DNA of 51,506 nt, filler included, from Stramenopiles sp. TOSAG23-6 (taxonomy: Eukaryota): assembly GCA_900128565.1 (NCBI GenBank). It is 2 parts of 2 records of this genome, joined end to end, with 100 filler letters (N's around TTAATTAATTAA, not from the genome) between each part and the next. Parts side by side here need not be neighbours in the genome. Positions count along the whole stretch, not along the records: positions 25,805 to 51,506 come from LT635993.1; 1 more part is not named here. The stretch is one strand, 5' to 3'. The notes under the pieces were generated by a model, which made no database searches, was not told where the DNA came from, and was given only the letters and a program-made list of their open reading frames with translations. Of the stretch, positions 56 to 51,506 are shown in pieces. How positions within the stretch are numbered: position 1 is the first letter of the stretch; each line of letters begins with the position of its first letter. A program made the position numbers and the translations under genes.

Positions 56-1922
56 CCGCTTTACAGTATAGAAAGTTCACTCCGGGTACAACAATATTCG
101 AAAGGAATACCAAAGGTTGCACAGCCTATTTAGTTTTGAATGGTTCAGTGAAACTTTCATTTGGTAACAGAAATATATCATATGTAGCTCCTGGCGAATG
201 TTTTGGAGAAGAAGTACGTTTCATTTCAATTTTGAATTTATTATTTTTTCAAAAAATCCTTTTAAAAACCAACAAAATATTTTGAATTTAAAATATTCTT
301 CACAATACGTGCTTTACTTACAATGAATTCAAAGAGAGAAACTGATGCCTATGCAGTTTTTAAAAACAATAAAGCGATTGAATGTCCTGAAAATGATGTA
401 AACAAAATTGTATCATTTGTGGAATGTGCGGAAATTTCAGTTGAAGATTATTTGCTGATACGTTTAGAATTGCGAAAATCAAGTCAACAATATTGTAATA
501 TTTTACAAACAAAATTTTCTTTATTTCAAAAATGGTCAAAACCACAAGTCTACCAAATAAGTAAGAAACTTCAAATAAATACTTATAAACCAGGTACAGT
601 AATTTATCGAGAAAAAGATGATGCTACAGCATTATTTTTAGTTTTTTCAGGTGAATTGAGTGGATTTTGCAAGTCAACATTTCGACAAAAAGTGTATGTT
701 TTCATTATGAATTTCATATTTGTTTGTTTTTTTCGTACTAAATTTTGTACCTAATGAAACATTTGAATTTTAAATATTTTTTCACAGTGTGAGCATTGGC
801 CAAAAGATCCAAAAAATAAAGGTAAAAATTATTCCACCCATAAAATAAGTCGATCGTTCAAGGTAGGTGCTTTTACACCTGGATTATTTTTTGGTCTTGA
901 AGGTTGTACATTTTCATCATTTGAATTTCGATTTTGTTTTGTTTTATTTTGTACCAAATTCTGTATTACCTAACGAAATTCAAATTTTTGAAATATTTTT
1001 CCACATTACTTGTAAATCTGAATTATCTCGACAAATTCAGCAGAATAAAGCAAAATATAGTACACAGGATACAGCAAACAAATTTTCTTTCAAAATGAGT
1101 AGTGAACTTTTAGAACTAATTGTGTCAGTGGATGAACTAACTGATAACCCTAACCCTAATGAAAAATTAAGAATAGAATCTGATGTAGATCAATCAACAA
1201 TGAGTTCATCATTTGAAGATAACGAATCAACCATCAGACGTGATTTTTCAGTTATTGCAAAAACAAGTGTCACAATTGCAAAATTTGATTACAAGAATTT
1301 TAAGATTCTCCCTACATCATTACTTCAGCAACTAGTCGATTTACACGATTCTCATTCGAAAAGATTAGAGATTATAAAGCACAGTACCAATCTTATACAA
1401 GAAGAAAAACGAAATAAAAAGCTTCTGCGGTTAGAATACGGTACAAAATATTGGAGTTCTAAAACTCGTGTTAAAGATTTCAGTAAAGTTGAAAAAAAAA
1501 AAAGTAATAATAAGAGAGGTTTTCGGGGTGAGATTCCTATAAATAAAATGCGTCCAATGACCTCAATTACGCCATATAGTAGTATTCGTAAGCTTAAGCA
1601 AAATAAATGTAATAAAATACGTCCAATGACGTCAATAGATCACTCTTCAAATCATTTGGAAATACTTCAATCAAAGCTGGCAATACTTCAAAACCAAGAT
1701 CTTGAAACTTCAATCAGAAAAATTCAAACAAGTCGACGTAAATTCATTTTGAAACGAAATAAAAATATGAAACAAAATATAGAAAAAAAATATACTTCTG
1801 AATGGGATGAAAAACTTAAAAATAGATCTCAATCGTCGCGTAGACGACTCATTGAAAGGAGGGGAAATTATTGGCGAAATGATGTTTTTTTTGTGGGTAC
1901 TTCAAAATCTCATGTAATTTAG
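56..1922 (+). CDS. Cyclic-nucleotide-binding (cNMP) domain protein, 5'-partial, spliced
   Basis: Exons 56-213, 311-693, 793-905, 1012-1922 give two cNMP-binding folds (KFTPGTTIFER...AYLVLNGSV...PGECFGEEALL; YKPGTVIYRE...LFLVFSGEL...PGLFFGLEG) once the repeat introns are removed. Confidence 0.75.
214..310 (+). mobile_element. Introner-like intron, GT...GT, 97 nt, degenerate core
   Basis: GTACGTTT...CACAATAC-GT; removal gives CFGEE|ALL. Confidence 0.8.
694..792 (+). mobile_element. Introner-like intron (family register GT...GA, or canonical GT-AG at 692-787)
   Basis: GTATGTTTTC, core CGTACTAAATTTTGTACCTAAT, end TTCACAGTGT; both registers keep the frame. Confidence 0.7.
906..1011 (+). mobile_element. 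Introner-like intron, GT...TT, 106 nt
   Basis: TT|GTACATTTT...TACCTAAC...CACATTAC-TT|; joins FFGLEG-C-KSEL in frame. Confidence 0.8.
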
Positions 1923-14947: not shown

Positions 14948-16124
14948 ATGCCACCAACAACTAGATCTCAAGTGCTAAAGCAGCTCAGTGAACGGATTGA
15001 GGAAATTTCAGATCACAATGATAGAAACTGTCGTGTTTTGCATAATACCCGCACAATCATTGCTGGAATTACATCTGAATTAGAAAAAGCTAATAGTAAG
15101 TATAATAGTACTGAGCGAAGTAAAACTCGCGCGCGTGGATACCGGGGAAACTATGACACTCGGTACCAAAAGCGGACAAAGTATAACACAGGTCATGGAA
15201 GAGGTCGGGGAAAAGGACGTGGGAGAGGTCGGGGAAGAGGTCGTGGGAGAGGACGTGGAAGAGGACGTGGTAGAGGTACTGGAAGATATACTGGAAGAGG
15301 GTGTGCTAGAACGCACCGAGGATCTAGTGGTAGTTGTAATTCGGTGAAAAATCCGAGGAAAATAGGAAATACTGGAAATTTAGTCTGGATTGCACCAAAA
15401 AAAGGCAGTCGTACTTCTCCAACTGATTTTAATAATAGTTTTATAGAAAAAAAAAAAAAAAACGCAACAATATTGTACATTTTACTGCCGATATGGTCGT
15501 TGTGCTAAAGCGGGTAAGTGTGAATTTATACACGATGCCGCAAAAGTTGTACGTTTTCATTTCAACTTCAATTATTTTTTCATACGAAATTTTGTACCTA
15601 ACAAATTTAAGTTTTTTTTTTTTGAAATATTTCTTTACAATACTTGCAGTTTGTAAAAAATTTTTGAGAGGTAGTTGCAAAGATAAGAATTGTCTATTAT
15701 CTCATAAAATATCTCCAGAGAAAATGCCTGTTTGTATATTTTATCTCTCTGGGGTATGCCCTAAAGGCAAGTCAAAATGTCCATATTCGCATGTGAGGGT
15801 AAATCCTAGTGCTCCCATCTGTGTAGATTTTAATAATGCCGGTGGTTGTCGATTAGGTGTTGTACGTTTTATTTTTTTTTTTAGTAAATATTTTTTTTTC
15901 ATACGAAATTTTGTACCTAACGAATTAAATTTTTTTTTTTTTTCACAATACATTTGTGCCCTCATCGACATATAGTACAGTCAAAAAAGCGACAAATTCA
16001 AAATAAATCTAATGGAAACCGTCTTTCAAATAACCCTAACAAACGTATGAAAACTGAAACAAGCACAAGTTGGGATATAAAAATAGATGATAGTATGAAA
16101 GTTCGACCACAATTCGCAAGATGA
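14948..16124 (+). CDS. CCCH zinc-finger protein (ZC3H3-like) with RG repeat, spliced; apparent 1-nt frameshift in an A16 run
   Basis: Tandem CCCH fingers YCTFYCRYGRC...HDAAKV|AVCKKFLRGSC...KMPVC...CPYSHV...CRLGV|LCPHRH; introns 15549-15645 and 15862-15953; poly-A at 15447-15462. Confidence 0.8.
15195..15300 (+). repeat. (Gly-Arg)n coding repeat
   Basis: GRGRGKGRGRGRGRGRGRGRGRGRG. Confidence 0.9.
15549..15645 (+). mobile_element. Introner-like intron, GT...TT, 97 nt
   Basis: TT|GTACGTTTTC...TACAATAC-TT|; restores HD..KV|AVC. Confidence 0.9.
15862..15953 (+). mobile_element. Introner-like intron, GT...AT, 92 nt
   Basis: Removal restores C-x5-C-x3-H spacing (CRLGV|LCPHRH). Confidence 0.9.
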
Positions 16125-25704: not shown

Positions 25705-25804
25705 NNNNNNNNNNNNNNNNNNNNNNNNNNNNNNNNNNNNNNNNNNNNTTAATTAATTAANNNNNNNNNNNNNNNNNNNNNNNNNNNNNNNNNNNNNNNN
25801 NNNN
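25705..25804. other. Artificial contig spacer (N44-TTAATTAATTAA-N44)
   Basis: 100-nt N run containing a linker with stops in all six frames; flanking contigs are 25,704 and 25,702 bp, consistent with size-sorted concatenation. Confidence 0.92.
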
Positions 25805-25857
25805 TTGTACCTAACAAATTTTAGTTTTTTTTTTTGAAATATTTTTCCAAAATACAT
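25805..25857 (+). mobile_element. Introner-like intron, 3' part (mirrored at 51454-51506)
   Basis: TTGTACCTAAC...TTTGAAATATTTTTCCAAAATAC-AT. Confidence 0.8.
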
Positions 25858-26196: not shown

Positions 26197-26276
26197 TGTA
26201 AAGTTTAATTTTTTGGTTTTGTTTAGGTACAAAAAATCGTAGGAAAAAAAAAAAAACGTGTAAAGTTTAAACGAAA
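26191..26276 (-). mobile_element. Degenerate introner copy downstream (presumed 3' UTR) of the WW/EF-hand gene; mirrored at 51035-51120
   Basis: CCTACGATTTTTTGTACCTAAAC...TACACTAT-AT on the minus strand; donor end eroded. Confidence 0.55.
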
Positions 26277-26355
26277 TAAATTTATTTTTTTGTCTGAAAA
26301 TATTTGCTAAAAGCACATCTTCGAATTTATCTTTTACATTTCTTTAATTTTGAAT

Positions 26356-29300: not shown

Positions 29301-32300
29301 TTGCAGTTTCTATTCGTTTTTTAAGAGCAGCAGCTTCTTCTTCTGCTACTCTTTTGGCAGCAGCTGCCTCTTCTGCTTTCTTGCATGCAATACGCTTTGC
29401 CTCCCACGCCGCTTTTGCATGTTTAGCTTCTTCCTTTGCTTTACGAAGTTCTTCTTCGGCAGCTTCTATCTCGATAATTTCTTTCTCGGTTGCTTCGTTT
29501 TCAACATTATCTATCTCTGTAGTTTTCTTTTTCATTTCATTTACATCATCTATATGTTCATCATGTAATCTCATAGTTCCAATGTCAGTTTTGTTTTGTC
29601 TGTCTTCACCAATTGTTCTTCCTTCTGTATGATCTAAAATTTGCGATTGTTTTCTTAATCGCTTCAACTTTTCAGCTGCTATATTACAGGTTTTATTCAA
29701 TGAAAATGCTGTGAATGCTAAATGATCTCTTTCATTTTCTAACTCAACTTGTTGCATAATTGTATTACGACTCGATTGTATAGCTTCTTCTTCCTTAAAT
29801 GCTTGCTGTTTTGCATTCGTCACATTCGTGAGTTTTTGATTCGCATCATTTTGTGCTGCTTCCCAATCTTTTTGAACTTTTGTACATTTTAAAGCAACCT
29901 TTTTTGATTCATTCTCTGTTTGTTGAAGATCCTTTTTGGCAGATAATACATCAGCACTATTACTTGTGCACATAGATTTAATTCGCTGTCGCTCTGTCTC
30001 AATCGCTATTAACTCTTCTTCAATGCGAGACTGTAACTTTTCTGTTTCTCTAGCACCAACAACATGAAAGCTTTCAATTTTCAAAGTTTCTACGTTTGCT
30101 TCACGTTTGGATAATTTTATTGTTGTCAAACGAACTTTTTCCTCAACTTTTACTATTGCATTCGACAGAATATTTTGAGCATCACACACGTTGTTTTCAC
30201 ATATACTCAATTCAGATTGTAGGGATTCGACTTCGTGACGAAGACTTTCTTCTTTCTGAGCTGCAAGTTCGCAATCTTCTTTTACCCTTGATATCCATGC
30301 AGATGATACTGATTTTGCTTTCATTGCATTCTTGAGCAATATTTTCAAAGCACCGTTTTTTTTCACCGGACGCTCGCTTTCGACAGTATACGCCTGTGCT
30401 TTCATTATTGCGTGATTTATTGATGTTTCAGTTTCATCTAAAACTAGCTTTATTGCAATAGATGCTGTGATTGCGACATTGGCAGACTCTTGGATATATT
30501 GAGCTAAACATATTTTCTTCTTTTCGATTTCTATAAAATTCTCTATCTCTACAATATCTCTCTCAAGTGTAGATGCAAATTCTGTGACACAGTTTGCAAT
30601 GGATTTAGCTATGATAATTGCATTTTTCATAACCAACTTGTCTTCCGTTTCATCTTTAGGAGTAACATTACCTGATTTGTATGTTCTGGTTTTCAACTTG
30701 CAACGGTGACCTAATAATTTTCTAAACATTTGAAGAATAAAGTAATTTTCATCAATTTTGATTAAATCAACGCGACTACCTAAATTTTTCAGCAGTGATA
30801 GCACATGCTCATGTTCATCAATCCCATTGATTTCACTACTTTCACCAATCGCACGAGAACTATTAATCTCATCAATCGAAATAATTTTTGCCACAACATT
30901 TTCTTCTCCTATTGATTCAGTGGCATCTATTTTACTATTGTCTACATCACTGATCTTTGTCTCTATTGAATCAACGATACTATTGTCTACATCACTGATC
31001 TTTGTCTCTATTGAATCAACGACACTATTGTCTACATCACTGATCTTTGTCTTTATTGAATCAACGAAATCTAGCTCTGTTTCATTGATAGTTTCAGTAT
31101 CAGTATCATTTTTTACATTTTCTACTTTCGGCACAACATTTTTCAAAATATTTCCATGCAAGCCCACCAACTTCATTTTGTTCAGCGCAGATTTTATTGC
31201 TGTTGGCGGGTTTCTTTGTTTTTGAAACCACTCTTCAACATATTTATACGTTATTTTCGCTGCCTCTACGATACTAACTTTTCCATCTGCATTTGAATCT
31301 GCAGAAGAAAGCAACGCGTCAAGTTGTTCATCATTCATCGGAATGATTTTACCATCTATTTTAAAAGCGTCTTTTACCTGCATATCAAATATAACTTGCT
31401 GAAATTCACTACTTGATATAAAACCATTATTATCAGCATCATACGAAGTAAATAAAGATTGTATATGTTTTTGTCGTTCTATTGAATTTAATTTACCATC
31501 AATTTTTTTGAGTAATTCCACTGGCACATCTGGTTTGTTCCATTGACACTGGCCAGTAACAATGCACCAATAATAAGTATGACCATCAGCATCAATGTGC
31601 TCTTCCCATTCGTGTTTTTGGGGTTGCTTTATTAAAGGCGCGGAGGTACCACTTGGTTTTGTAAAACCCATTATTTTGAGTTTTTTCATTGCCGATTGCA
31701 TCGCTTTTGGTGGTTCTCGATTATTGCTTGCAAGCCAATGTTCTACTTTTGTCTTTGTTAAAAGTGTTGCTTCATCTATACTAACCTTTCCATCACCATT
31801 ACCCATTTTATCTGCCATTAACAATAACTGTTCTAGCTCATTGTCAGGTATTGAAAGAGCAAATGCAATTTGCATATCTTGTAGTGCAGCGCGAAACTCT
31901 CCAGGGGATATAAAGGAACTATTATCTTTATCATACTTTTGAAATAATGTTTTGAGTAGAATTTGTCTTTCTTCCTCAGTTTCTTCATGTTTTCGAAGCA
32001 TCAAATGTTTTGGTATCCCAGCAGGATACTCCCATTGACTTGTATTTGTGTCTGTATTGAAGAAGAAAAGTGTTCCATCTTCAGCTTTATGCTCTTCCCA
32101 CTTTCCTAGTAAACTTCCCCCAGCTTTAGCAAAATCAAATTCGCTCAATCCCCAAACATTCATCTTACTTATTGAAGATTTTATCACATCCTTTACAGAA
32201 TATTGCCTAGATTTGAGCCAAACTTTGATTACATTATGTGTCAGCTGTGTTGCTTCCACCAGATCGACCTTACCATCATTATTAGTGTCTGAAAATGACA

Positions 32301-35226: not shown

Positions 35227-35539
35227 GGTCAGCTATTTTGATCCAGCTGTAGTGTTTTCATAATATTCTAAAACTTTAAATTGCTTGTTTGGAGAGTACT
35301 AAAAAAATAAGATGGTGAACTGACCAGTGTGACATTTTTGTAACTGTGGAGAATATTGCGAATGGAACAAACCTGAAACCTGAAATATATTTTTTCGATT
35401 ATATGCGCGCGAGCTCAGTCGAGCTCTTCTTCTTCTTTTTGTCACACACACAGCAGAGAAGAAGTGTTTTTCATTTTTATAGAGTACGACCAACCGTAAT
35501 TGTTAGACTTCAGCGTTTTATTTCGCAAATTAATAGCAC

Positions 35540-36678: not shown

Positions 36679-38569
36679 ATGAATCGTCTTTCTTGCTTTT
36701 CTGTAAGTATGTCAAAGCACCTAATTGGAATTTTGGTCTCATTATTTCTCCCCATAATTGTTCTCGGCACACATAGTGATGGACCAAGTGGAGGACGGAG
36801 TAAGGAAGTTTTGAACATGATGAGCGACTTCTCTTCAAAGTTGGCAAATATTGATGAAAGTATGCCAATCGGGTTAGATGATTTCTCGAATAGATTTAGA
36901 GGCTCTAGTGAGAGAGATTCCGGGATACAAATAACGATAAAGGAAAAAGAACTTCCTCAAAAAAATTTCCCCTTTTTATCATTTGATCCGCTTACATTAC
37001 TCGAAGACCAAAGCACTAACAAAACTCATCCTCAAACCAACAATACTCAACCTCAAGCCAGTAGCATAACTCAACCTCAAGCCAGCAACACAACTGATGT
37101 GCGTTTTCAAAATCAATTTCGATTTTTATTTATACCAAATTTTGTGCCTAACGATTTTTTTACTGATTTTTTTTTCACAATACATCAAGCACAGGGATTA
37201 AATTCAACCCAAATCCAAGGATTGCATGGGAATTCTACTATAACAGAGCCTTTTGTATTGGACTCTCATCGAGCACCAGGAGTTCCATATTATCATGCAA
37301 CTAAGTCAACAGATCTTTCTTCTTCTTCTTCTTCGGAAGATAACTGTTGCTCAGATAGCTTGGCACCAGGAATCCCAGGTTGGACTTCGGATTTAGATAT
37401 AATTGATGAGAATGCCATTCGAGCAATGGAAGGTGCCATGTACGTTTTCAAAATTTATTATTCTTATCTATTTTTGTTGTTGCAAAAATTGAACTCAACT
37501 TTCATACAAAAAAGAAATATTTCTTCACAATATAGTAAGCCTGTGATGAGACGAGCTGAACAAGATAAGCAAGTTGCAGATTTGATGACGGAACAAGCCA
37601 AGCTCTTTCAAGAGAAGGCTTTGGGTAGTCAGAAAGTGGCTCAAGAGACAAAAGAAAAGGTTGATAAATTGACATCTGCTGTACGAGCTAAACAAGATAT
37701 ATTTATTGCAACGGGACTCCATCAAGATGTACGTCTTCCATCATTTTAAATTTTAAATTTATTTTTTTGAAAAACATCTGTACCCTATGTTAACAAAAAA
37801 ATCAAATTTGAAATATTTTTTCACAATACATGCAGTGAGAGCACAATATATCACAAAAGCCCAATTGAAAGCTCAGGAAGCAACAGTAAAGCACCTACGG
37901 AAAAAATCAGAAGAAGCCGATGAAGCTCAAAAAAAATCATCGGAACGACTAGACAAAGTAGTACAGCAGTTTAAAAGTATTTCGAACCAACTACCTAGTG
38001 TCTTCATGGCACAAAAACTAGCTCAGAGGGCAGAAGATGCAGTTGGTAAACCTGAAATGAATGGTTTAATCGAAACATGGAATTTGCAGGGCATGGATCC
38101 GGACTCTCATGAAAATACAAGAGATACAAAGAATTCAGTGACAGTCGAAATTTCACCAACTCCATGCAAAGCTTCAAGTGAACCTTGCGGTGAATCGAGA
38201 CCAGCGGACGCAGCAGAAGCAGACACAGCAGACCCATCAGCACCAGCACCAACACCGCCAAATCCACCAACAACACAAGCAAACGCAGAAGCAGTACCGG
38301 CAGCAATAACAGAAGATTTAGCAGAAGCAAAAGCAAACGCAGCAACAGCTGGCACATTGGTGGAGTCAAACGCACATTCCGCGGAAAGCAGAGGAGACTT
38401 CGAGCGTTTGAAGGAAAGCCTCGAGAATAGTATTCAACGGGAGGCAGAGCGTGTGAAAAAACGCCTCGAGAATATCGAGAAAATACAAAATTCAATTACA
38501 AAGGAAATTTCTTCACCAGTGAAAGGTGAAAAAGAGGGAATGACTCAAAAAAGTGAGCCTATAGTATAA
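36679..38569 (+). CDS. Secreted coiled-coil protein A of unknown function, 3 introns
   Basis: Signal peptide; exons 36679-37098, 37186-37439, 37536-37728, 37832-38569; paralogous to 40096-41520. Confidence 0.7.
37099..37185 (+). mobile_element. Introner-like intron, GT...AT, 87 nt, in frame
   Basis: AT|GTGCGTTTTC...TTTTGTGCCTAAC...CACAATAC-AT|. Confidence 0.8.
37440..37535 (+). mobile_element. Introner-family intron with canonical GT...AG ends and eroded core, 96 nt
   Basis: AT|GTACGTTTTC...CACAATAT-AG|; AG lies exactly at the family's terminal NN position. Confidence 0.8.
37729..37831 (+). mobile_element. Introner-like intron, GT...AT, 103 nt
   Basis: Joins ORFs 36523 and 37787; spliced product is colinear with the intronless paralog. 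Confidence 0.88.
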
Positions 38570-40095: not shown

Positions 40096-41520
40096 ATGAG
40101 TCCTCCATCTTTGAATATTTCAAAGTACCTACTAGTTGTTATGATATTTACGTTAATTTCCCCTAAAACGGTTTTCTGCGCAAAACAGCATAAGGTAAAA
40201 CTGAGGAATGTGTTAGAAATGCCTAGTGACTCAAAAAATAATCAAAGGGTGTCCATACACGGAGGACTGCAATCTAATAGATTTACAGATATCGAAACAA
40301 TGAACACCGCTTCTGGAAAACAACAAGTTATGTCTCTAAATAGATTCAGAGGTACCCACGAGAACACTACGATTGCTTGTGGCAAAGAAAACAGTGTTAC
40401 TCCTTGTGGTGAGGTACCCCAGGAAAATCCGGTTGAGTATTATACAGTAAGCAAGGGCTCAGGATCTGCTGAAGGGTGTTGTTCGACGGCGGCTGATGAC
40501 GCTATTATAGAACAAGCAGAAAGGGATAAACTTGCAGCTGATTTAGCCTTGAAAAATGCAAAAATACTTGAAGAAAATGCAAAAAAGAGTGCAGATGCTG
40601 CAAAGAGTGCAATATCTAAAAGAGATGATTTAAACAGTAGAATTAGAGTGAAGACAATCTTAGATGAAGCAAAAAAGAAACATCTTAGAGCAACTGAAAG
40701 ATACGGAATCACGAAGGCACAACTTCGAGCTCAGGAAGCAGCAGTAAAACACTTAAGTATAGATGCGAAAAATGCAAAGCAGTCATTAGAAGAATCAACT
40801 GAAGAATTGGATAAAGCATTCGCGGCCTTTAGAAGTCTCGCGACTAAATTGCCTAGTGTTACATTGGCAGAGAACTTAGCAGAAGAGGCTGAGAATGCAA
40901 TTGGTAAACCAGAGATGAATGATTTAATTCAGACGTGGAATTCGGCCAAATCAAATTTGGACAAAAATTCAACACCATGTAACTCTTCGGGAAATCCTTG
41001 TGAAAATCATAACAACGAGGTAAAGCCGTGTAACTCAACAGATAAAGGATGTGGTGTCCCAAAGGAAAGTGGAGATGATACCCTGCACGAATTTGCTACA
41101 GACAACGATGTAGAAATCGATATATCTACAGAAAAAATTGGTTCAAATATGAAAAACTTAAAAATTCCTGCTCCAGAGAAGGCATCTTTACAAGGCAATT
41201 CAAGTGATGATACCCAGCANGANTTTGCTACAGGCAACGATGTAGAAATCGAGATATCTACAGAAGACATTGGTTCAAATATGAAAACCTTGAAAATGCC
41301 AACTCCAGAGAAGACATTGGTAGCTCCATGTGATTCTTCTGTCAAACCTTGTACGAAGAATATTACAGATACATTAACTCTGGTTGATCCATGCAACTTT
41401 TCGGAAGCTGGTTGTGTCTCCGGAGAACATCAAGATCATAAAAGTGACACTGCTGTTTTAAGTACTAGTTCTAAAGATTTAATAGCTGATTTTGTAAACG
41501 ACACAAAGGAAAATTCATAA
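40096..41520 (+). CDS. Secreted coiled-coil protein C, intronless paralog of A, with internal ~130-bp duplication
   Basis: Shares ITKAQL.AQEA.VKHL...LPSV..A..LA..AE.A.GKPEMN.LI.TWN with A; FAT.NDVEI.ISTE.IGSNMK.LK occurs twice. Confidence 0.7.
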   Translation: MSPPSLNISKYLLVVMIFTLISPKTVFCAKQHKVKLRNVLEMPSDSKNNQRVSIHGGLQSNRFTDIETMNTASGKQQVMSLNRFRGTHENTTIACGKENSVTPCGEVPQENPVEYYTVSKGSGSAEGCCSTAADDAIIEQAERDKLAADLALKNAKILEENAKKSADAAKSAISKRDDLNSRIRVKTILDEAKKKHLRATERYGITKAQLRAQEAAVKHLSIDAKNAKQSLEESTEELDKAFAAFRSLATKLPSVTLAENLAEEAENAIGKPEMNDLIQTWNSAKSNLDKNSTPCNSSGNPCENHNNEVKPCNSTDKGCGVPKESGDDTLHEFATDNDVEIDISTEKIGSNMKNLKIPAPEKASLQGNSSDDTQXXFATGNDVEIEISTEDIGSNMKTLKMPTPEKTLVAPCDSSVKPCTKNITDTLTLVDPCNFSEAGCVSGEHQDHKSDTAVLSTSSKDLIADFVNDTKENS

Positions 41521-41553
41521 TAAAAAGCATTTCATTCTAATGTTTATAGTTTA

Positions 41554-43615
41554 TTATATCGAAACTTTGGTTGACTGATCTTTCTTTATACAGTCATTGT
41601 CCGAGCTAAGAAAAACGGGTGTTTTGTAGCATCTGCCTTGGACTAACTTTGAAAGCCCTTCGCCACTGAAACTTAATTTGGCAGACACTTCACATAAATC
41701 TTCACCAACTACAGTAGCACCTGCCGCTATCAACCATTTTCTATGTAGGTTTGACGTCATGAGTCTAGCTGTTTCTGGCGAGTCATTTCCCGTCGCGTTC
41801 TTGACTGGCGAAAATTCATTCTCACGATTCACTTCAAGTACTACAAGGTTACTTGCTATAGGGAACAAATCAAATATGAATGACTCTAATTTTATACCAT
41901 TTCTTTCTCTCGGGTTTGGATCATCGACACAAGGAATCACACAATGTGAAAAAATATATTTTTTTTTGGCTGAAAAAAAATCGTTAATTACAACATTTGG
42001 TACAAATAAAAAAACAAAAAAAAATTCAACTTTTGAAACGAACACTTTCTTTGCAATATGGTATTTACGAGGCAAATTATTCGGTGCACAGTTATTTTTA
42101 AGAAAATCAAAAGAGTAGTAGTGTATGCAAACGTTACCTGCACGAAAAGTAAGTTGACCGTTCAAATCACACTTTTTTAATAATTCTGGTTTCATATCAG
42201 AATATTCCACGACGCAAGTGATGTATTGTGAAAAAAAAAAATTGTTTTTAGTAAAAAAAATCAGTTAGGTACGAAATTTCGTATGAAAAATATATACTGA
42301 AAATATTCAATTTTGAAAACGTTCATTCCGGAGCGACGACAGAGTACACCCACTTTCTCTTCTGGGTTAGTTTTCGACACAACTTTGTTACCTACATCTG
42401 CATTTCGATCTCGGCAATAGCCTACAAATACTGGATCTCCCACTTTACTCATTGCATTATCAATTGCACCACACCAAATATGTATTGTGAAAAAACATTG
42501 TTTTTTGGAGAAAAATCGTTAGGTACGAAATTTCGTATGAAAAAATTGAAATTTAATTTTGAAAACGTACACTCGACACTCCTTTACGTTGCATATGACT
42601 AATTGGGGATTCCGTGCCTAATGTTGATCCACAACCATGTAGGGCTCGATAGATCCCACCATTACCGTCTGGTGCAGTCGCTACTTCAAACTTAGATTTA
42701 AGAAGAATTTTACCATCCGGTGAGAGACAAGGTAAAGTATTGTGAAAAATATATTTTTTTTTTTTTGTAAAATAAAAAAAATTGTTAGGTACGAAATTCC
42801 GTACGAAAAAAAAATAGGTAAAAAAAATTCAATTTTGAAAACGTACAAGTGCCTTGCTTGAAAAACACGACTTGATCTTCAGCTAAGCCAAAGTTATTAT
42901 TAGCTTTGAAATATTTTACTGTATCATCATATATTGTCAAATAATATGGTTGAAGTTTGAAATTCGTTAATTTTTGGAAGAGTACAAAAATTGGATTTAA
43001 TTTGGGTAGTAAATATACAAAAAAACTCAAAAAAAATGCTAGGTACGAAATTTTCTACGAAGAAAAAAAGTAAATTTGAAATTCATCATGAAAACGTACA
43101 TCAGTCATTGGACTCGTCATTACATATAACCAGACTTTTGGCTGCACATTTGAAATTTCAGGAAAGTTCATTTTCGCAAGTTCTTGTAGTTTGAGTATGC
43201 GTTCACACTGCAACTGGAAAAGACTCTTTTTGCTCAAGAGACCAATGTTAAATTCTCCTTTTGGACGATTGGATTTCAAACGTGTACCTTGACCTCCCGC
43301 CATAATGATGACACCTAATTCTTGCATTGCAACAGCTTTCAAGCCATTGTTGCGCCATGCTTCAGTTTGGTCATTTGGGACGTCACTTAAAACAGTAACC
43401 GATTCGCAAGGTTGGAGGGTTCCACCAGTTCCACTCTCAGTAGCAAGACCATCCATCGTTGCTTTATAAATATTGTTGACGTACTCAGGGTCGTGTTCGC
43501 CTAATTGTTCTAAGAACATCTTCAACTCAATGTTTGATGAATCCTTTTCACAAAATCGCATGACATGTCCCTGTTTGGCATCTGCATAACGCTTCTGCTG
43601 AATAGAAAAATTCAT
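41554..43615 (-). CDS. UAP1: UDP-N-acetylglucosamine pyrophosphorylase, 5 introns
   Basis: [46 protein letters not shown]...[33 protein letters not shown]. Confidence 0.95.
41939..42043 (-). mobile_element. Introner-like intron, GT...GT, 105 nt, in frame
   Basis: GT|GTTCGTTT...CACATTGT-GT|; restores HIAKK-V-IPCVD. Confidence 0.85.
42221..42324 (-). mobile_element. Introner-like intron, GA...AT, 104 nt
   Basis: AT|GAACGTTTTC...CACAATAC-AT|; restores [17 protein letters not shown]. Confidence 0.88.
42480..42570 (-). mobile_element. Introner-like intron, GT...AT, 91 nt
   Basis: Gives [13 protein letters not shown] with the usual G-to-DN spacing of UAP. Confidence 0.88.
42735..42846 (-). mobile_element. 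Introner-like intron, GT...TT, 112 nt
   Basis: Restores conserved QGT-L-PC. Confidence 0.92.
42929..43099 (-). mobile_element. Composite introner intron, GT...AT, 171 nt (truncated copy plus a second degenerate copy)
   Basis: Restores MTSPMTD|DDTVKYF; a second TT-GTATATTT start lies near 43018. Confidence 0.8.
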
Positions 43616-43700
43616 ATTTAGTCAGATGATTTCAAAAGCACTTGTGGGCTACCTAAAAATTGCCATCAGTAGGTAGACGTTGTTGACCAGTAGTAGGTAT

Positions 43701-43727
43701 TAACCCTAACCCTAACCTTAACCCTAA
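43701..43727 (+). repeat. Interstitial telomere-like (CCCTAA)n tract in the divergent UAP1/GlnRS intergenic region
   Basis: TAACCCTAACCCTAACCTTAACCCTAA. Confidence 0.7.
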
Positions 43728-43923
43728 TTTAACTATATCAAGTCCACGACACGTGTGTGAGCAGTCACAAATTCACAAGTCATGATGTGTACCAACAACA
43801 ACAACAACAACAACAACAGCAAAACATTGTATTAGTTTATTTTGAGTAAATATTTCAAGATGGTACGATACCTCGATACAGTTTAATCTAACAGAAAGGC
43901 TTGTAAAACATAATAGCATATTA

Positions 43924-46080
43924 ATGAGTGAATTAGCTTTATTTCGTACTTCTTTACGTCTACAACTGAAACACTTTTCAAGAGTTTCGAATATTCCCAA
44001 CAGTCATTTTGCTTTTTCCACGGCTACTCCTTCAAACTTTGTGCGTTCACTTGTAGCATCAGATGTAGCAAATGGAAAGTTTGGTGGTCGAGTTCAGACA
44101 AGATTTCCACCAGAGCCAAGCGGCTACTTGCATATTGGACATGCAAAAGCCATGTGTATCAACTTTGGAATAGCCAGTGATTATCGCGGCGGTTTATGTA
44201 ACTTGAGATTGGACGATACAAATCCGGCTAACGTTAAGGAAGATTACGTCGCTGCAATTGCTGCTGATGTAAAATGGTTAGGATATAATTGGGATGGCGA
44301 TATACTCTATGCATCAGATTATTTTGATGATTTGTTTAATTTTGCTAAAGCTCTTATTAAGAGTGGCAAAGCTTATGTCTGTGAAGTCTCGCAGGATGAG
44401 TGGCATAAAGGAGGACACGCTGGAACTTTAACAACTCCTGGTGTACCATGTAAATATCGCAATAGACCAATAGACGAGAGTTTACAACGATTTAATGAAA
44501 TGCGTGATGGAGTTCATCCGGAGGGTTCAATTGTTCTTCGTGCAAAAATCGATTTATCATCGTCGAATATGCACATGAGAGACCCTATGAACGTTTTATT
44601 TTTTTTTACAAAAAAATCGATTTTTTTTTCGTACGAAATTTCGTACCTAACAAATTTTACAATTTTTTTTTTTCACAATGTATACTATATAGAGTGTTGA
44701 AAAAAAATCACTTTCGCACGGGCTCTACATGGAAAATTTATCCGACATATGATTATGCGCACGGTATTTCCGATGCGATAGAAGGTGTTACACACTCTTT
44801 ATGTACTTTAGAGTTTGAAGAACATCGTGCTTTATATAATTGGTTTGTTGATGCGGTTGGTGTTGGAACTGGACTTTGGCATTCAGACGATGATGGCGAT
44901 GTGATGAAACGCCAGCCTGAACAAACAGAGTTTTCTAGACTAAATATATCCAATTCAATTACATCAAAACGTTGGCTTCGTGCTCTCATTGATGCAGATA
45001 TTTTATCGGGTTGGGATGATCCTCGTATTCTAACGATTGCTGGGATGAGAAGACGTGGTTACCCGGCTCCCGCAATTAGAGGTTTTTGTAATGGTACAGG
45101 TTTTAATCGCACATCTGAGGGGGTAGTTGATATGAAAATGTTAGAATCATTTGTCCGTGATGAATTAGATAAAAATGCTCCTCGTGCTATGGGAGTTTTA
45201 TACCCCTTGAAAGTTATCATTGAAAATTTTGATGATGCGTTTCGAAGTTATGGTTCAAAGAATAACCCTAACCCTAGTTCAAATGAGAATCTTGGTGGTA
45301 ATAGTGCTACTCTTTGTATTCCAAATCATCCCAAGAATCCTGATATGGGCACGAGAGCGGTGCCAATTTCGAAGGAAATATTTATTGATAGAAATGATTT
45401 TAAAATTGAGGCGAACAAAAAGTTCAAGCGCATGTATGTTTTCACATTTTAAATTTTGATTTTTTTTTCATAGTAAATTTTGTACCTAACGATTTTTGAT
45501 TTTTTTTTTGAAATCTTTTTCACAATACATGACAATGAAACAAAGTGTTCGTCTCCGAGGATCCTTTATCATTCGTTGCAAAAAGGTAATTACAGATAAA
45601 GTTACTGGTGAGCCTATAGAATTGCACTGTGTTGCAGACGAGAATTCAATCGGCAATAACCCTGATCTTAAAAATGGGCCGAAACCAAAAGGAGTTGTAC
45701 ACTGGGTTTGTGGAAGCAGTTCTGTTCCAGCAGAGGTTCGACTGTACAGTAATTTATTTATTGAAGATTGCGAAGATCCAGTAGCTGCTGCAATGGAAGC
45801 CTCGAAATTGCATGAATGTAATAATGATAATAGCAATGCTTTACCAGATGTGTCGTTTTTTGAACCATTTTTGAATAAAACTTCGAAAATTGTGATTTCG
45901 GATTGTCGCGTGGAAACAAGTATTTCACAGGCTACCCACGGAAGTGTGTTACAATTTGAACGCGAAGGATATTTTGTTATTGATGATGATTCTAAGTATA
46001 CGAACGATGGGAAACTAAGTAGTCTTGTGTTGAACAAAACGATTGGTTTAAAGGCAGGGAAGGGATTTGCTCGGAAATAA
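43924..46080 (+). CDS. glnS: Glutaminyl-tRNA synthetase (short, bacterial-like, with putative organellar transit peptide), 2 introns
   Basis: TRFPPEPSGYLHIGHAKA, LRLDDTNP, MRDP-I-LYR, IYPTYDYAH, THSLCTLEF, GWDDPR, PKGVVHWV, QFEREGYF. Confidence 0.93.
44589..44683 (+). mobile_element. Introner-like intron, GA...AT, 95 nt
   Basis: AT|GAACGTTTT...CGTACGAAATTTCGTACCTAAC...CACAATGT-AT|; restores conserved MRDP-I-LYR. Confidence 0.92.
45434..45530 (+). mobile_element. Introner-like intron, GT...AT, 97 nt
   Basis: Restores KFKR-M-TMKQSVRLR, matching GlnRS KR-to-VRLR spacing. Confidence 0.9.
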
Positions 46081-46158
46081 CGCAGGGATTTGCTCGGAAA
46101 TATTAATATATAATTTCGATAAAGTACAACTTATAATTTATTTGCAAAGTTTCCATTT

Positions 46159-46568
46159 TTATTCAGATGAACCAGATGCGTCCATCATGAGTGTAATGTT
46201 ATCTCCCTTTAGCAATATTCGCCCAAGTTTACGTCGCGTCTCCTTTTTTACGTCAAGTTCTTCTGCTTCATCAAGAGTAAGGTTCATATACTCGTCAAAT
46301 CCCTGTAGTATTTGTAATATATTGGAAACAATAAAGACTTCATTTAGATGATATATTAAATATAATGGATATTGAAATACATAGATAACGAATGATATAT
46401 AACATCAAATGGAAACATTGAATAGAAGTATGAACGTACGATAATTTTTCCCTCAATGCGAGTGTTAGTCTGCTCGTAAAGCCAGATTTGAACTCTGGAC
46501 TTATTTTGCAAAAATCTAAAGATCAGATTGATCGGCTGGGTCATAACTTTCTTAACTTTCGATGCCAT
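46159..46568 (-). CDS. SNRPE: Small nuclear ribonucleoprotein SmE with one canonical GT-AG intron
   Basis: [15 protein letters not shown]...IWLYE...[20 protein letters not shown]...[13 protein letters not shown]. Confidence 0.95.
46303..46439 (-). other. Canonical spliceosomal intron (GTACGT...TACAG, 137 nt) lacking the introner core
   Basis: Joins EGKII|GFDEY exactly. Confidence 0.92.
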
Positions 46569-46857
46569 TTTCCTGTAAGAATATCAAATTACACTTTTAC
46601 TTTGATCTCTATTGTCTAAATATTGGATAGAGTTTTATCTCTGGAAGTTCCGAACTTCCGACTTGGGACTTGCGAGGTTTCTCTCGCTGCGATTGGAGGC
46701 GCTGCTGGCATTTTTGACCCACAAAAATCACGAAATCCGCGTATTTTTTTAGATGATCAAGAAGAAGTGAACATCAAGATCAGATCGACTCGACATCTTG
46801 CTTGGTGGTTATTACAATTTATATAGAGTCGACACTCGGTATATTTGATATTTGATA

Positions 46858-49800
46858 ATGTCTTCACCTAATTTCGATATTGAATCTGACCATTACGATG
46901 ATTATTTCGATGCAGAGGAATATGGTTCTCCAACTAAAAATAGCCTTGTCAAGTCTCCGAAGTTACTTTCTTCGCCTGTCTTTCATGAAAGGCATAAGCC
47001 TGATGGACAAGAAAATGTTGGTGGACAGGTTCAACAAAACTTGAAAACCAAATCACCTTTATATTATGAAAATTCGAACAAGATAGGTTCGTCTGATAAT
47101 CTTGACTGTGTTACTAGAAAACGTGTTTCTGTACTAGGTATCATATCTCCAGTAGTCAAGACAGTTACGGACGATTCTAAAGTTGAATCTATTCCAGTTA
47201 AAGGATCACCAGTAGTCAAATCACCAACAGATGCAAAAAATGAAGAAAGAAAGTCAAGTTTGTATACACCTGAAAAACCTCCGCCATTACCTTGCCGTTC
47301 GCTAAAGCCTACTCCAACGCCCCCCAAAATTAAATCTATGTGCACAAGTAATAGTGCTGATGTATTATCTGCCAAAAAGGATCTTCAACAAACAGAGAAT
47401 GAATCAAAAAAGGTTGCTTTAAAATGTACAAAAGTTCAAAAAGATTGGGAAGCAGCACAAAATGATGCGAATCAAAAACTCACGAATGTGACGAATGCAA
47501 AACAGCAAGCATTTAAGGAAGAAGAAGCTATACAATCGAGTCGTAATACAATTATGCAACAAGTTGAGTTAGAAAATGAAAGAGATCATTTAGCATTCAC
47601 AGCATTTTCATTGAATAAAACCTGTAATATAGCAGCTGAAAAGTTGAAGCGATTAAGAAAACAATCGCAAATTTTAGATCATACAGAAGGAAGAACAATT
47701 GGTGAAGACAGACAAAACAAAACTGACATTGGAACTATGAGATTACATGATGAACATATAGATGATGTAAATGAAATGAAAAAGAAAACTACAGAGATAG
47801 ATAATGTTGAAAACGAAGCAACCGAGAAAGAAATTATCGAGATAGAAGCTGCCGAAGAAGAACTTCGTAAAGCAAAGGAAGAAGCTAAACATGCAAAAGC
47901 GGCGTGGGAGGCAAAGCGTATTGCATGCAAGAAAGCAGAAGAGGCAGCTGCTGCCAAAAGAGTAGCAGAAGAAGAAGCTGCTGCTCTTAAAAAACGAATA
48001 GAAACTGCAAAATTAGAGCGCACGAATGCCAAAGCTAATGTAGAAAATGCAGCGAAAATACGTGAGAGTTTATCAGCTACACTTCAACGTATTAAAGAAG
48101 AGGAGGCTTCTGCAGTAGCTTTTGAAATTCAAACAGAATGTTCCCGAGATGAAATATTAGCAATGAAGCGACAAAGGCGTCTAGAAGTCGAAGCAGAAGC
48201 CACTGCTGCACACGGATATCTTCAAAGTACATTGGATTCTAATAAGCCTGAAGCTGCAGCTGTTTTTGACAAAATATCGGAAAATTTAAAAAAATTGACT
48301 GCTCTAGAATTTGAAACAACTCAAAATTTAAATGAGGAGGTAAACTTTGCAAAGCAAAAAACTACTTTAAAGGAAGAAGAATTGAGAAATGCAAAAGAAG
48401 CATTAGCTATTTCCTCGCTGGATTATGACGCTGCAAATGCAATGTACAATGTAAAAAAACTTGAGGAAGAAGAAATACATTCCTATCTACAGGTATGTGC
48501 ACAAAAAAAGGCGTTGGAAGCATCGGCAAGGAAAGCTAAATTGAGAGCAAGTATTCAAAAGAGTAAACTATCTCATTTACGACAGCAACTTGAATGGCAG
48601 TGTAATATAAAGAATGCAGCAAAAGTTGCTGCTATAAAAACTCTAGAGAATGTTGAAACAAATTCAAGGCTAAAACATGAAATGTATCAGAACGCAAAAG
48701 ATGATTATAATAAAGTTGTAAAAGCATCACAATTGGCTGTGGAAAATACTATAGGAGATAAAACATCAAGTATTGCTTGGTATATCGCAGCAACTGCCAG
48801 TGAAGCAGCACTACAATGTTACATTAAAGCTGAGATAATGTTAGCAATGACATTAATTGAGACTGCTGCCCATGAAGAAATCCAAGCTATTTCTGCTGCA
48901 AAACAAGCTGAAGAAGAATTCAGAAAAATTAATGTAAAATGGGCAAATGAATTTTCTTCTGCTGCTATTGTAAGACATGATTCTGAAGAAACTCAAACTG
49001 CATTATTAGAAAACGCGGTAAAGGAACATGAAAAAGTGAAAGAACAACTGAAAAATAGTGTACTCCATCATTCTGAAGCATTAGCTGCCCGTGTTGCGTG
49101 GGACTCTAGTAGTAATGATAGATGTAAAACTAGTCGAAGCATATCTGAAAAAAGACGAATCGATCGCCATAAAAGAAAAGCAGAATATGACAATGCGATT
49201 GATGCACGTAACGCGAAAGCACAACAAGCAGAAAAAGATGCTCGAGAGAAAGCCAAGGAAGCAAGTCGAATCAAGCGGGTAAAACAGCAACAAGAATGGA
49301 GAGAAAAAGCTATGGCAAAAGCTCGTGCTAAGGTTGCTGCGACTGTAGCTTCATCTGCCACAGTTGAAGCTATGTTTATGTTTAATTTATGCAAATCCAG
49401 TGTAATATTAGCACGGAAACGAAAGATTCAGATAGAGTGTAGTAAAGAAGTAGCGATAGCGGCGTATGTTGCAGCAGGAGCAGCTGTATATTCATTTAAA
49501 TTATCAAAAAACGCGATACAGAGTATTGTAAGTGCAAAGCATCGACTTCGACCAATATTAGCGAAAGCCGCATACGTATCTGCTAGTGCTTTATTAATAG
49601 CACGACGGGAAAGACACCGAGCTGATCATTTTGTTTTAGATTGTATCAAAAGTAACCAAGATGCATATCGTAGACATGTTGTAGCTTTAAAAATTGAAGA
49701 ACGACAGTGTGGCAAATCTATGGCAGATGCTGCCACGGTATGCTACCAAAGTGCATTGAGTAGCGCCTTATCTTCAGCAGTAGCAATGGCATATGTTGGT

Positions 49801-50955
49801 TCAACAATTGCTCGTCACTTTTCGAATATTGCAGCTAATGCTAATGATAAAGTGCAAGAGGAATTACGTATACGCCAAGAAGCTATTACTGTAGCAATAC
49901 AAAGAGCTGTAATTATTTCATGTGATGCAGCTTCATTTGCATCTACAAAAAGTTCTTTAGCAATTTCAGAAGCAATCCGCGTAAAGAAAGTGCGTAGACA
50001 AGAACTGCAAAATGCTGCAAGAGCCGCTCGAATTGCAGCTCGAGCGGCACGACGTGCATTCAAATATGCAGAACAAGTTTTGGTGTATATCAAAGCAGAG
50101 ATTAGTAGTTTCCAGAATACATCAAAATGGCGCGAAATTTATAATCACAAGAAGATGCGGTATTACTACATTAACAAAACTACAAATGAAAAAACGTATA
50201 TGAAACCTGGACCATTATTATTGAAAGATGAAGCCCGTATGAAACTTTTGAAATTTGGGGCAGAAAAAGCGAGGGAAATGATGTTATTGCAAAAATCAAG
50301 ACAAAAACTTCAACAAAATGACCAATGTATTGATAATCTTAATACCGATAAAGCTTTCAATATTAAAGATGTTGACAATGCTAGTTTTTTCAGAAGAAAT
50401 CATCAATCTAAAGCACATCCTTCTTTTATATTAAAAGAAAAGCTGAAACCAATATCATTTTCTACAATAAACACAATACTTTCAATGGAATTTGGATTAG
50501 ACTGGGCTGAACTATCTCCAATTGGTCAATTGAGATGTATGAGAATGTCGCGAGAGAAGACTGCATTACATAATAAAGTTGCTTCATGTATACAGTCATT
50601 AGCTCGTGGTATGTTGACTCGTTTGAGACTTAAAAAATTAAAATCAGATGCAGATCCTAAAGACAATACATTTATACACACGAAATCACGACGTCGCCAA
50701 AGTAGAAAACCAAAATATACAGGAAAAATATTGAATATACAACAACCAGATAAATATTATTTACCTGCAATACGCCCTGTAATACATGACACTTGTAAAA
50801 AACCATTTCCGAAACAGGTTAAAATAAATCAAAGGAAAAAAAATCGTCGCTTTGGAGCACGAAATCGTCCGACATTTGGATCCGATGAAGGTCGAAAATT
50901 GGCTTCAAAGATGGGCCTAAGTAGTTTCGGGAATCCTTCATTTACTTTGTCATAG
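46858..50955 (+). CDS. Probable chimeric ORF: unique Ser/Pro-rich ~157-aa N-terminus fused in frame to the duplicated C-terminal part of the WW/EF-hand gene
   Basis: Identity to 26356-29983 begins abruptly at 47328 (…PTPPK|IKSMCTS). Confidence 0.45.
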   Translation: MSSPNFDIESDHYDDYFDAEEYGSPTKNSLVKSPKLLSSPVFHERHKPDGQENVGGQVQQNLKTKSPLYYENSNKIGSSDNLDCVTRKRVSVLGIISPVVKTVTDDSKVESIPVKGSPVVKSPTDAKNEERKSSLYTPEKPPPLPCRSLKPTPTPPKIKSMCTSNSADVLSAKKDLQQTENESKKVALKCTKVQKDWEAAQNDANQKLTNVTNAKQQAFKEEEAIQSSRNTIMQQVELENERDHLAFTAFSLNKTCNIAAEKLKRLRKQSQILDHTEGRTIGEDRQNKTDIGTMRLHDEHIDDVNEMKKKTTEIDNVENEATEKEIIEIEAAEEELRKAKEEAKHAKAAWEAKRIACKKAEEAAAAKRVAEEEAAALKKRIETAKLERTNAKANVENAAKIRESLSATLQRIKEEEASAVAFEIQTECSRDEILAMKRQRRLEVEAEATAAHGYLQSTLDSNKPEAAAVFDKISENLKKLTALEFETTQNLNEEVNFAKQKTTLKEEELRNAKEALAISSLDYDAANAMYNVKKLEEEEIHSYLQVCAQKKALEASARKAKLRASIQKSKLSHLRQQLEWQCNIKNAAKVAAIKTLENVETNSRLKHEMYQNAKDDYNKVVKASQLAVENTIGDKTSSIAWYIAATASEAALQCYIKAEIMLAMTLIETAAHEEIQAISAAKQAEEEFRKINVKWANEFSSAAIVRHDSEETQTALLENAVKEHEKVKEQLKNSVLHHSEALAARVAWDSSSNDRCKTSRSISEKRRIDRHKRKAEYDNAIDARNAKAQQAEKDAREKAKEASRIKRVKQQQEWREKAMAKARAKVAATVASSATVEAMFMFNLCKSSVILARKRKIQIECSKEVAIAAYVAAGAAVYSFKLSKNAIQSIVSAKHRLRPILAKAAYVSASALLIARRERHRADHFVLDCIKSNQDAYRRHVVALKIEERQCGKSMADAATVCYQSALSSALSSAVAMAYVGSTIARHFSNIAANANDKVQEELRIRQEAITVAIQRAVIISCDAASFASTKSSLAISEAIRVKKVRRQELQNAARAARIAARAARRAFKYAEQVLVYIKAEISSFQNTSKWREIYNHKKMRYYYINKTTNEKTYMKPGPLLLKDEARMKLLKFGAEKAREMMLLQKSRQKLQQNDQCIDNLNTDKAFNIKDVDNASFFRRNHQSKAHPSFILKEKLKPISFSTINTILSMEFGLDWAELSPIGQLRCMRMSREKTALHNKVASCIQSLARGMLTRLRLKKLKSDADPKDNTFIHTKSRRRQSRKPKYTGKILNIQQPDKYYLPAIRPVIHDTCKKPFPKQVKINQRKKNRRFGARNRPTFGSDEGRKLASKMGLSSFGNPSFTLS

Positions 50956-51506
50956 ATTCAAAATTAAAGAAATGTAAAAGATAAATTCGAAGATGTGCTT
51001 TTAGCAAATATTTTCAGACAAAAAAATAAATTTATTTCGTTTAAACTTTACACGTTTTTTTTTTTTTCCTACGATTTTTTGTACCTAAACAAAACCAAAA
51101 AATTAAACTTTACACTATATTTTTGAAGGGCCTTGTGGTGTTGAAACTTCCAAAGTCGATAATTCTTTCCGTTGAACAATGCTATGATCGCCAAGTATTG
51201 TAAAAAATATTTTGTTTTTTTGTTTTTTTGTTAGGTATAAAATTTGGTACGGAAAAAAAATAAATTCAAAATTCAAAAAAATAAAACAAATATGTATTGT
51301 GAAAAAATATTTTTTTTTTCGGTAAAAAAAAACTTCGTCAGGTACGTACGAAATTTTCATAATCAAAAATTCAAAGTACAATGGACAACGTACAAATGTT
51401 TCTTGGCATAATGCTGCGAGGACGTCCCCACGATGCAATGCATCAACAATGACATGTATTTTGGAAAAATATTTCAAAAAAAAAAACTAAAATTTGTTAG
51501 GTACAA
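47328..51506. repeat. Inverted duplication, copy 2
   Basis: Reverse complement of 25805-29983, ending exactly at the contig end. Confidence 0.95.

Follow-up and report, generated by a model that had tools for sequence, protein, structure and literature searches.

Introns that begin with GT and end with AG are close to universal. Here we describe a family of short, repeated elements in a 51.5-kb stretch of DNA from Stramenopiles sp. TOSAG23-6 (assembly GCA_900128565.1; the whole stretch is called the window below), where they sit like introns in the genes for UDP-N-acetylglucosamine pyrophosphorylase (UAP1) and a bacterial-type glutaminyl-tRNA synthetase (GlnRS), with a canonical-looking 5' end and no AG at the other. 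Two copies, one in each gene, begin with GAACGT in place of GTACGT. Several described systems come close. In AT-AC introns of the U12 type the 5' site is ATATCC or GTATCC, and the branch site stands about 10-20 nt before the 3' end. Huff, Zilberman and Roy reportedly described in 2016 a non-autonomous introner with splice signals of its own; a single copy of the target-site duplication is said to leave with it, so that insertion into exons is tolerated. For Fritillaria borealis and F. pellucida, the available extract of PMC13326754 describes non-canonical introns of the U2 type, most of them without GT/AG and with AT (34-44%) or AC at the 3' end; a YAY triplet stands before the 5' site and at the intron end, the borders are placed by convention, a T-rich tract is retained, and the major spliceosome is held responsible. 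The introner elements of Amoebophrya (PMC7789003) have terminal inverted repeats of 8-20 nt that form a hairpin, direct repeats of 3-5 nt and no fixed terminal motif; the same paper mentions introners in Micromonas pusilla and Aureococcus anophagefferens. The nonconventional introns of Euglena have borders other than GT/AG, and their junctions can be slid through direct repeats (PMC12501133, in extract).

Copies of the family were counted within the window only. At up to 3 mismatches the core motif has 26 occurrences where 0.17 are expected (0 of 100 shuffles reach 26), and the 3' box, TTTTCACAATAC, has 17 where 1.03 are expected. From 7 copies we built a profile that gave 28 nhmmer matches at E<=1e-3; once the 3 that fall in a duplicated block are set aside, 25 distinct copies are left in the 51.5 kb. 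The 5' end is visible in 24 copies, namely 21 collected by script and three read by eye (214-310, 694-79x and 37729-37831). When aligned, the 21 scripted copies share one layout: GTACGT or GTATGT, a variable A/T-rich stretch, a palindrome CGTACGAAATTTCGTAC running into CCTAAC, a run of T, TTTTCACAATAC, and two further bases. The palindromic core carries the branch box TACCTAAC, of the yeast-like CCTAAC type. Position 1 is G in 24/24 copies, position 2 is T in 22/24 and A in 2/24, and the last base is T in 22/24; the 5' hexamer reads GTACGT in 10 scripted copies, GTATGT in 3 and GAACGT in 2. A box of the CTAAC type, followed by the T-run, is found in 20 of the 21 scripted copies, one copy falling outside the search pattern, and its distance from the end is 33-50 nt in 19 of the 20 that were scored (27 nt in the remaining one, owing to a second motif). 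The elements are on the whole ~90-115 nt long and all sit in sense orientation; G+C content is 21% in introns against 39% in exons. A canonical 5' hexamer of the U2 type, a branch site and a pyrimidine tract are all present, and many similar copies coincide with introns of unrelated genes, as in an introner family or one derived from a miniature inverted-repeat transposable element (MITE). An earlier, sequence-only reading of the window took the first G to be the sole invariant base of complete introns; this holds for the terminal bases, but the A of the branch box and several positions of the 3' box are invariant in the alignment too.

The family is not confined to this genome assembly. A scan of metagenomes with the 17-nt core returned 77 loci, 1 of them a real copy whose ends are the same (in L052, an unrelated contig from a marine metagenome) and 6 of them weak matches at the level of the core; a scan of viral contigs returned 6 loci and no real copy. 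In contigs of a seawater metagenome (run X2), depth runs to thousands over the core (18641), against about 7 over unique exons, and very many copies of the family are therefore present in the organisms sampled.

All 7 introns of UAP1 and GlnRS are family copies. UAP1 (41554..43615, minus strand) has 6 exons and encodes 492 aa without its 5 introns, while GlnRS (43924..46080, plus strand) has 3 exons and encodes 654 aa without its 2. On the minus strand, UAP1 intron 1 occupies 42929..43099 (171 nt, the longest of these seven; GTACGT...GACAATAT+AT, flanked by AT), intron 2 42735..42846 (112 nt; GTACGT...CACAATAC+TT, flanked by TT), intron 3 42480..42570 (91 nt; GTACGT...CACAATAC+AT, with GT before it and hence unequal flanks), intron 4 42221..42324 (one of the two GAACGT copies) and intron 5 41939..42043 (105 nt; GTTCGT...CACATTGT+GT, flanked by GT). 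On the plus strand, GlnRS intron 1, at 44589..44683, is the other GAACGT copy, and intron 2 occupies 45434..45530 (97 nt; GTATGT...CACAATAC+AT, flanked by AT). UAP1 exons match Pfam UDPGP, and one exon matches solved UAP1 structures (E 6e-10); GlnRS matches PF00749, PF03950 and PF20974 in Pfam. Without its 5 introns, UAP1 aligns continuously with 5 homologues at all five junctions, and the junction of intron 4, RRSG|ITCVVEY, is gapless (one homologue reads SKSG|RPCIVEYS). With 44589-44683 and 45434-45530 taken out, both GlnRS junctions (NMHMRDP|ILYRV and KKFKR|MTMKQSVRLR) are continuous in an alignment with 7 homologues; in the PF00749 profile, exon 1 ends at position 161 and exon 2 resumes at 164. 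Because all 7 junctions align straight through once the elements are removed, a functional protein, to judge from homology, needs exact removal of these lengths, which would take place at the level of RNA. These Pfam matches and gapless alignments bear out the claim that the two GAACGT copies lie in conserved coding regions; that they must be removed is likewise supported by homology, their lengths not being multiples of 3 and the homologues being continuous at the junctions.

A protein search with GlnRS exon 2 gave 1799 matches; the 120 listed are 44-51% identical, and the named ones among them are almost all bacterial glutamine-tRNA ligases. Since a bacterial-type gene cannot have had ancestral spliceosomal introns, both GlnRS introns are gains by insertion of a family element. 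The gene has no eukaryotic N-terminal domain, and its N-terminal extension of ~55 residues may be a targeting peptide. One family supplies every intron of UAP1 and GlnRS, and apparently most or all introns in the window.

None of these 7 introns ends in AG in any of the three registers in which their borders can be set. In register A the G of the element comes first, with the cut in front of GTACGT and the exit after the 2 nt past the 3' box; register B lies two bases upstream (AT|GTACGT...ATAC|), and a third possible cut one base upstream. For UAP1 introns 1-5 followed by GlnRS introns 1-2, the last two bases in register A are AT, TT, AT, AT, GT, AT and AT; slid by one they are CA, CT, CA, CA, TG, TA and CA, and slid by two AT, AC, AC, AC, GT, GT and AC. 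Among the 21 scripted copies only 37440-37535 (plus strand) has an AG end: it closes with ...CACAATATAG, where a T>G change creates the canonical dinucleotide. The copy at 694-793 (plus strand) ends in CACAGTGTGAG, and a GT-AG reading of it as 692-793 (102 nt) is also in frame. To judge from such copies, the family can drift to canonical ends. This family-wide lack of a 3' AG is more striking than the two GA copies. The proposal that neither GT nor AG is obligatory is supported by homology for AG, which none of these introns has in any register; for GT it depends on whether G-A are the first two intron bases.

On the minus strand, 42221-42324 reads GAACGTTTTC...CACAATACAT (longer ends, from 42324 to 42221, GAACGTTTTCAAAATTG...TTTTCACAATACAT); on the plus strand, 44589-44683 reads GAACGTTTTA...CACAATGTAT (longer ends GAACGTTTTATTTT...TTTTCACAATGTAT). 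Both begin with GAACGT, are preceded by AT and end in AT, which follows ...CACAATAC in the former and ...CACAATGT in the latter; these ends, and the lengths of 104 and 95 nt, neither a multiple of 3, are as first reported. The 17-nt core GAAATTTCGTACCTAAC, made up of half the palindrome and the branch-site-like TACCTAAC, is present with 0 mismatches at 42264..42280 (minus strand) and 44635..44651 (plus strand), and both copies retain a perfect ACGT at positions 3-6. The 42221 copy is nearest to 42480 (82% identity) and the 44589 copy to 15862 (81%), against 74% between the two. Because each is closer to GT copies than to the other, they are independent T>A variants from two subfamilies and not a GA lineage; rather than forming a special class, they are two ordinary members of the introner-like family. 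As AT precedes both, the mRNA is identical if the borders slide by 1 or 2 nt, and GA as terminal dinucleotide depends on this 2-nt register: the introns may equally be AT..AC (42221) and AT..GT (44589), with A at +4. If the 5' cut is placed instead at the GT within GAACGT and the 3' cut shifted by 4 nt, the protein is equally long and the termini are no better, and this option was rejected. A comparison of 5' positions 2-3 with 3' AC>GT variants gives 2/2 vs 1/19 (Fisher p = 0.06), a covariation that is suggestive only.

The A at 44590 is real. An independent metagenome contig, X2 record 4, spans 43841-44614, and its 5 differences from the window all lie elsewhere. The occurrence of GA in independent DNA is thereby settled for one copy; at 42323 the A is known from the assembly alone.

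In 18 of the 21 scripted copies the dinucleotide just before the element recurs as its last 2 nt, against a mean of 10.2 on random re-pairing; a value of 18 was reached in 1/20000 shuffles. With the three by-eye copies the count becomes 19/24. The upstream dinucleotide is AT in 13 scripted copies, TT in 6 and GT in 2. This flanking repeat looks like a 2-bp target-site duplication around an element with GTA...TAC ends, and because it lets the borders slide, three different cuts yield the same mRNA.

We favour, at a probability of roughly 0.45, a mobile, MITE-like introner family that is removed by the major spliceosome in register A, with GA..AT introns in the case of the two GAACGT copies. The element would bring its own splicing signals: a yeast-like 5' site GTACGT, the branch box TACCTAAC within the palindromic core, a T-rich tract, and the conserved 3' box TTTTCACAATAC, after which come 2 nt that repeat the dinucleotide in front of the element (AT, TT or GT). 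A U2-type spliceosome would cut before the G of GTACGT and then after the 2 nt following the 3' box; as the element leaves together with one copy of the repeat, the reading frame that preceded the insertion would be restored. The 3' site would accordingly be set by the conserved box and not by AG, and in the 42221 and 44589 copies independent T>A changes at +2 would be tolerated beside a perfect ACGT at +3 to +6. Register A places GTACGT where U1 and U6 read a canonical 5' site, and G(+1) is invariant (24/24). It also suits a copy without flanking repeat in a cNMP-binding domain (214..310, plus strand; AA before, GT at the end), which joins FGEE|ALL inside an FGE-x-AL motif and keeps its GT end although AA, not NT, precedes it.

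The introners of Micromonas and Aureococcus resemble this family in that they reportedly have their own splice signals, leave with one duplication copy and are present in numerous sense-oriented copies; those families are said to splice at GT-AG, whereas the family in the window has no AG. The likeness to Fritillaria lies in the ends other than GT/AG, AT or AC at the 3' end, a short repeat at both borders and a T-rich tract (extract of PMC13326754). The dominant 5' end there is AG (AG/AC, AG/AT), in many unrelated sequences, according to the same extract; here, in contrast, a single family combines a canonical-looking GTACGT with a strict branch box and, at the 3' end, a fixed box of 12 nt. 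Nor is the lineage the same: the source label of the closest protein model (P0001, discussed below) contains 'MAST3' and points to a stramenopile, not a tunicate.

Several observations weigh against removal by the major spliceosome in register A. The pairing of G(+1) with U(-1) is not known to be documented for any spliceosome. Two of 24 copies lack T at +2, which is high for a true +2 and would be more natural at +4. The copy that best discriminates between the registers, at 15862..15953 (plus strand), is preceded by TT, ends in AT and so has unequal flanks. It lies in the fourth CCCH finger of a ZC3H3-like protein, where register A gives C-RLGVL-C and register B C-RLGDL-C; among 59 sequences, position 4 of the orthologue spacer holds D 19 times, E 18 times, A 5 times and V once. 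(Of 150 representative homologues fetched, 60 fit the finger pattern, 59 of them with a 5-residue spacer; the other 90 are uncounted.) The finger in the window is itself atypical at positions 1 and 5, and this weakens the argument for register B. Three metatranscriptome runs and one DNA run (X2) were also compared, as contigs, with 41224-51506; the results given here are those of the rows listed, to which a further 296 joints, 640 loose ends and 9877 records are external. No intron-bridging contig is among those listed for the three RNA runs, record 10 of RNA run X5 (43016-43285) extends 84 nt from exon 1 into UAP1 intron 1, and depth in X5 is 3731 over the core against about 2-4 over exons, a ratio of the same order as that in the DNA of X2. 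Finally, with the A at 42323 resting on the assembly, X2 record 1 covers the 42221 copy with 8 differences that are unplaced among the rows listed.

The joints listed are cross-joins between family cores, and it is more likely that the RNA runs hold DNA or unspliced RNA than that splicing is inefficient. Contigs of these runs cover exons of both genes with 0-2 differences; record 26 of the polyA run, for example, corresponds to GlnRS exon 1 (43963-44299). Protein searches with UAP1 exon 4 or GlnRS exon 2 gave no spliced product among the matches listed. We consider it very improbable that the genes are not expressed as supposed, whether because the A's are errors of amplification or assembly or because the gene copies are dead. 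The window does contain at least one assembly artefact (an inverted duplicate of 4179 nt), and one of the two A's has the assembly as its only source. However, the A at 44590 recurs in an independent metagenome contig, the exons are open and conserved across all junctions and are covered in the RNA runs as just described, and if T were restored the introns would still be without AG.

The DNA contigs bear on a different possibility, namely that the elements are excised from DNA in a somatic genome, as are the internal eliminated sequences of ciliates, and that the DNA sampled is the unprocessed form. Short AT-rich elements inside coding sequence, with a 2-nt direct repeat that has to leave one copy behind, would be in keeping with this. 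Environmental DNA contigs independent of the assembly (X2 records 1, 4 and 5) nevertheless keep the elements in place, and no element-free DNA joint is among the rows listed; the repeat is AT, TT or GT, not TA, spliceosomal signals are present, and all copies are in sense orientation. Excision from DNA is, in our estimate, barely credible.

Removal of the same elements from RNA with the cut two bases upstream, i.e. in register B, is possible if somewhat doubtful. The introns would then be AT..AC for the most part and TT..AC or GT..AC otherwise; the 42221 copy would be AT..AC and the 44589 copy AT..GT, and their variant A would fall at +4 with no change of a splice-site dinucleotide. The mRNA is identical to that of register A in 19/24 copies, and where 15862-15953 tells the two apart, register B gives the orthologue-typical D instead of V. 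Of the alternative terminal pairs, A(+1) with C(-1) alone is known to function in both spliceosomes. T at +2 would be invariant in the 21 scripted copies, the last two bases would be A plus a pyrimidine in 18/21, and T>A changes in 2/24 copies are unremarkable at +4. On the other hand, GTACGT would stand at +3 to +8, out of step with every known reading of a 5' site by U1 and U6; 6/21 members would begin with T, and 214-310 would begin with AA. Most members share AT..AC ends with U12-type introns if the borders lie two bases upstream, but the 5' end reads (AT)GTACGT with nothing like ATATCC, and the branch box, at 33-50 nt from the end, is too far away for that class. The UAP1 junction at 42480-42570 (S vs N) is uninformative, the five homologues having Y, Y, W, W and T, and alignments to solved UAP1 structures stop before it.

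Something other than the spliceosome might also take the elements out of RNA, as has been proposed for Euglena and Amoebophrya, in which case the terminal dinucleotides would be irrelevant. Ends without AG, a palindromic core and borders that slide on a direct repeat, as they do in both of those systems (PMC12501133 and PMC7789003, each in extract), are compatible with this. The likeness to Amoebophrya extends to repeated, transposon-like introns, direct repeats that overlap the borders, non-canonical splice sites and affected gene prediction (extract of PMC7789003), and that to Euglena comprises borders other than GT/AG as well as the sliding (extract of PMC12501133). Unlike in Amoebophrya, there is no terminal hairpin and no inverted repeat beyond ~3-7 nt here, the direct repeat is of 2 nt, and spliceosomal signals are strongly conserved. 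No consensus RNA structure emerged, with 0 predicted pairs in the 21 aligned copies, and the ends do not pair: 3-7/12 terminal positions match, with z of self-complementarity from -1.7 to 3.3. What terminal inverted repeat there is consists of GTA...TAC or an imperfect 7-nt GTAYGT / ACAATAC, and Rfam and tRNA scans of the window found nothing. In the alignment we see neither the Euglena signature, in which CAG at +4..+6 pairs with a CTG close to the 3' end, nor end-to-end pairing. Given that the 5' hexamer, branch box and T tract form a classic spliceosomal layout, we regard non-spliceosomal removal as unlikely.

Existing annotation shows the effect of the family on gene models. A search with UAP1 exon 4 among longer proteins gave 9 matches among 13 candidates, of which only P0001, 95% identical over 80% of the queried exon, is close. 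P0001 is a model of the UAP1 locus that includes the translated starts of introns 42846-42735 and 42324-42221, lacks real exon sequence and uses false splice sites; the annotation pipeline could not model this intron family. In the literature, the single-cell genomes paper PMC5778133 has introns only in its methods, as far as its available text goes; the accessible text of the large introner surveys PMC12130899 and PMC9860276, both based on annotated introns, contains no mention of MAST or stramenopiles; and 'intron' occurs 0 times in the search listing for the genome paper on a cultured relative, PMC12614181. No description of the family was found in the full-text literature, a scope to which supplements and subscription journals are external. 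The two GAACGT copies are best regarded as point variants in a new, AG-less introner family, introners as such being already known.

We put at even odds the wider proposition that, in a stramenopile-like marine protist, the intron complement has been taken over by one AG-less mobile element. The protist's major spliceosome would choose the 3' site from a fixed 12-nt box (TTTTCACAATAC + 2 nt) and either join introns with G(+1) that end in T or apply AT-AC chemistry to nearly every intron, A at +2 would be tolerated, and gene catalogues would be systematically wrong. Few lineages have abandoned GT/AG (Fritillaria, Amoebophrya and Euglena), and they are the principal material for asking what a spliceosome needs; this family, if the proposition is true, would be another independent case. 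Its clean design, one family with canonical-looking 5' and branch sites and a 3' box that is fixed and AG-less, opens the 3'-site rule to direct test, and it shows intron gain from a mobile element in a bacterial-type gene without possible ancestral introns. Catalogues for the lineage would be in error down to low gene counts and apparent pseudogenes. For genomes of this kind, gene sets and counts and the calling of 'pseudogenes' need to be revised with an intron model that takes the family into account. Taken alone, the GA copies are a minor point: they show tolerance of A at +2 or mere variation at +4.

Other copies in the window show further arrangements. At 25918-26118 (plus strand) two copies stand head to tail without a spacer, spanning 201 nt between TT/TT flanks; in the second of them the 5' site has degenerated to ATTTGT, which would be expected under joint or recursive removal. 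The copies at 33675-33791 and 34453-34548 (minus strand) and at 37099-37185 and 37440-37535 (plus strand) are each a multiple of 3 in length and free of stops in the host frame. Long open reading frames (ORFs), such as 26356-35232, read through these four, and their retention would add 29-39 residues and leave the protein unbroken. The ZC3H3-like protein at 15439-16000 (plus strand), with tandem CCCH fingers, has two family introns, 15549-15645 and 15862-15953, and ORF 15439-15975 runs through both in one frame without a stop.

The duplicated block consists of 25805-29983 and 47328-51506, which are exact reverse complements (4179 nt) and adjoin the N gap at 25705-25804. Because independent contigs leave the window at 47337 (X2 record 6, X5 record 12 and X6 record 22) or, in the case of X6 record 23, enter it at 47328, the inverted duplicate is probably a chimeric, inverted assembly join. 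ORF 46849-50955 is probably a chimera with the giant EF-hand/WW gene at 26356-35232 (minus strand). The short spacer between the divergent UAP1 and GlnRS genes contains telomere-like CCCTAA runs and a (CAA)n run, at 43711-43727 and 43790-43817. Runs of CCCTAA/TTAGGG also follow the gene in metagenome contig L052, at about 140-215; the runs in both places may be a regulatory or terminator motif of the lineage.

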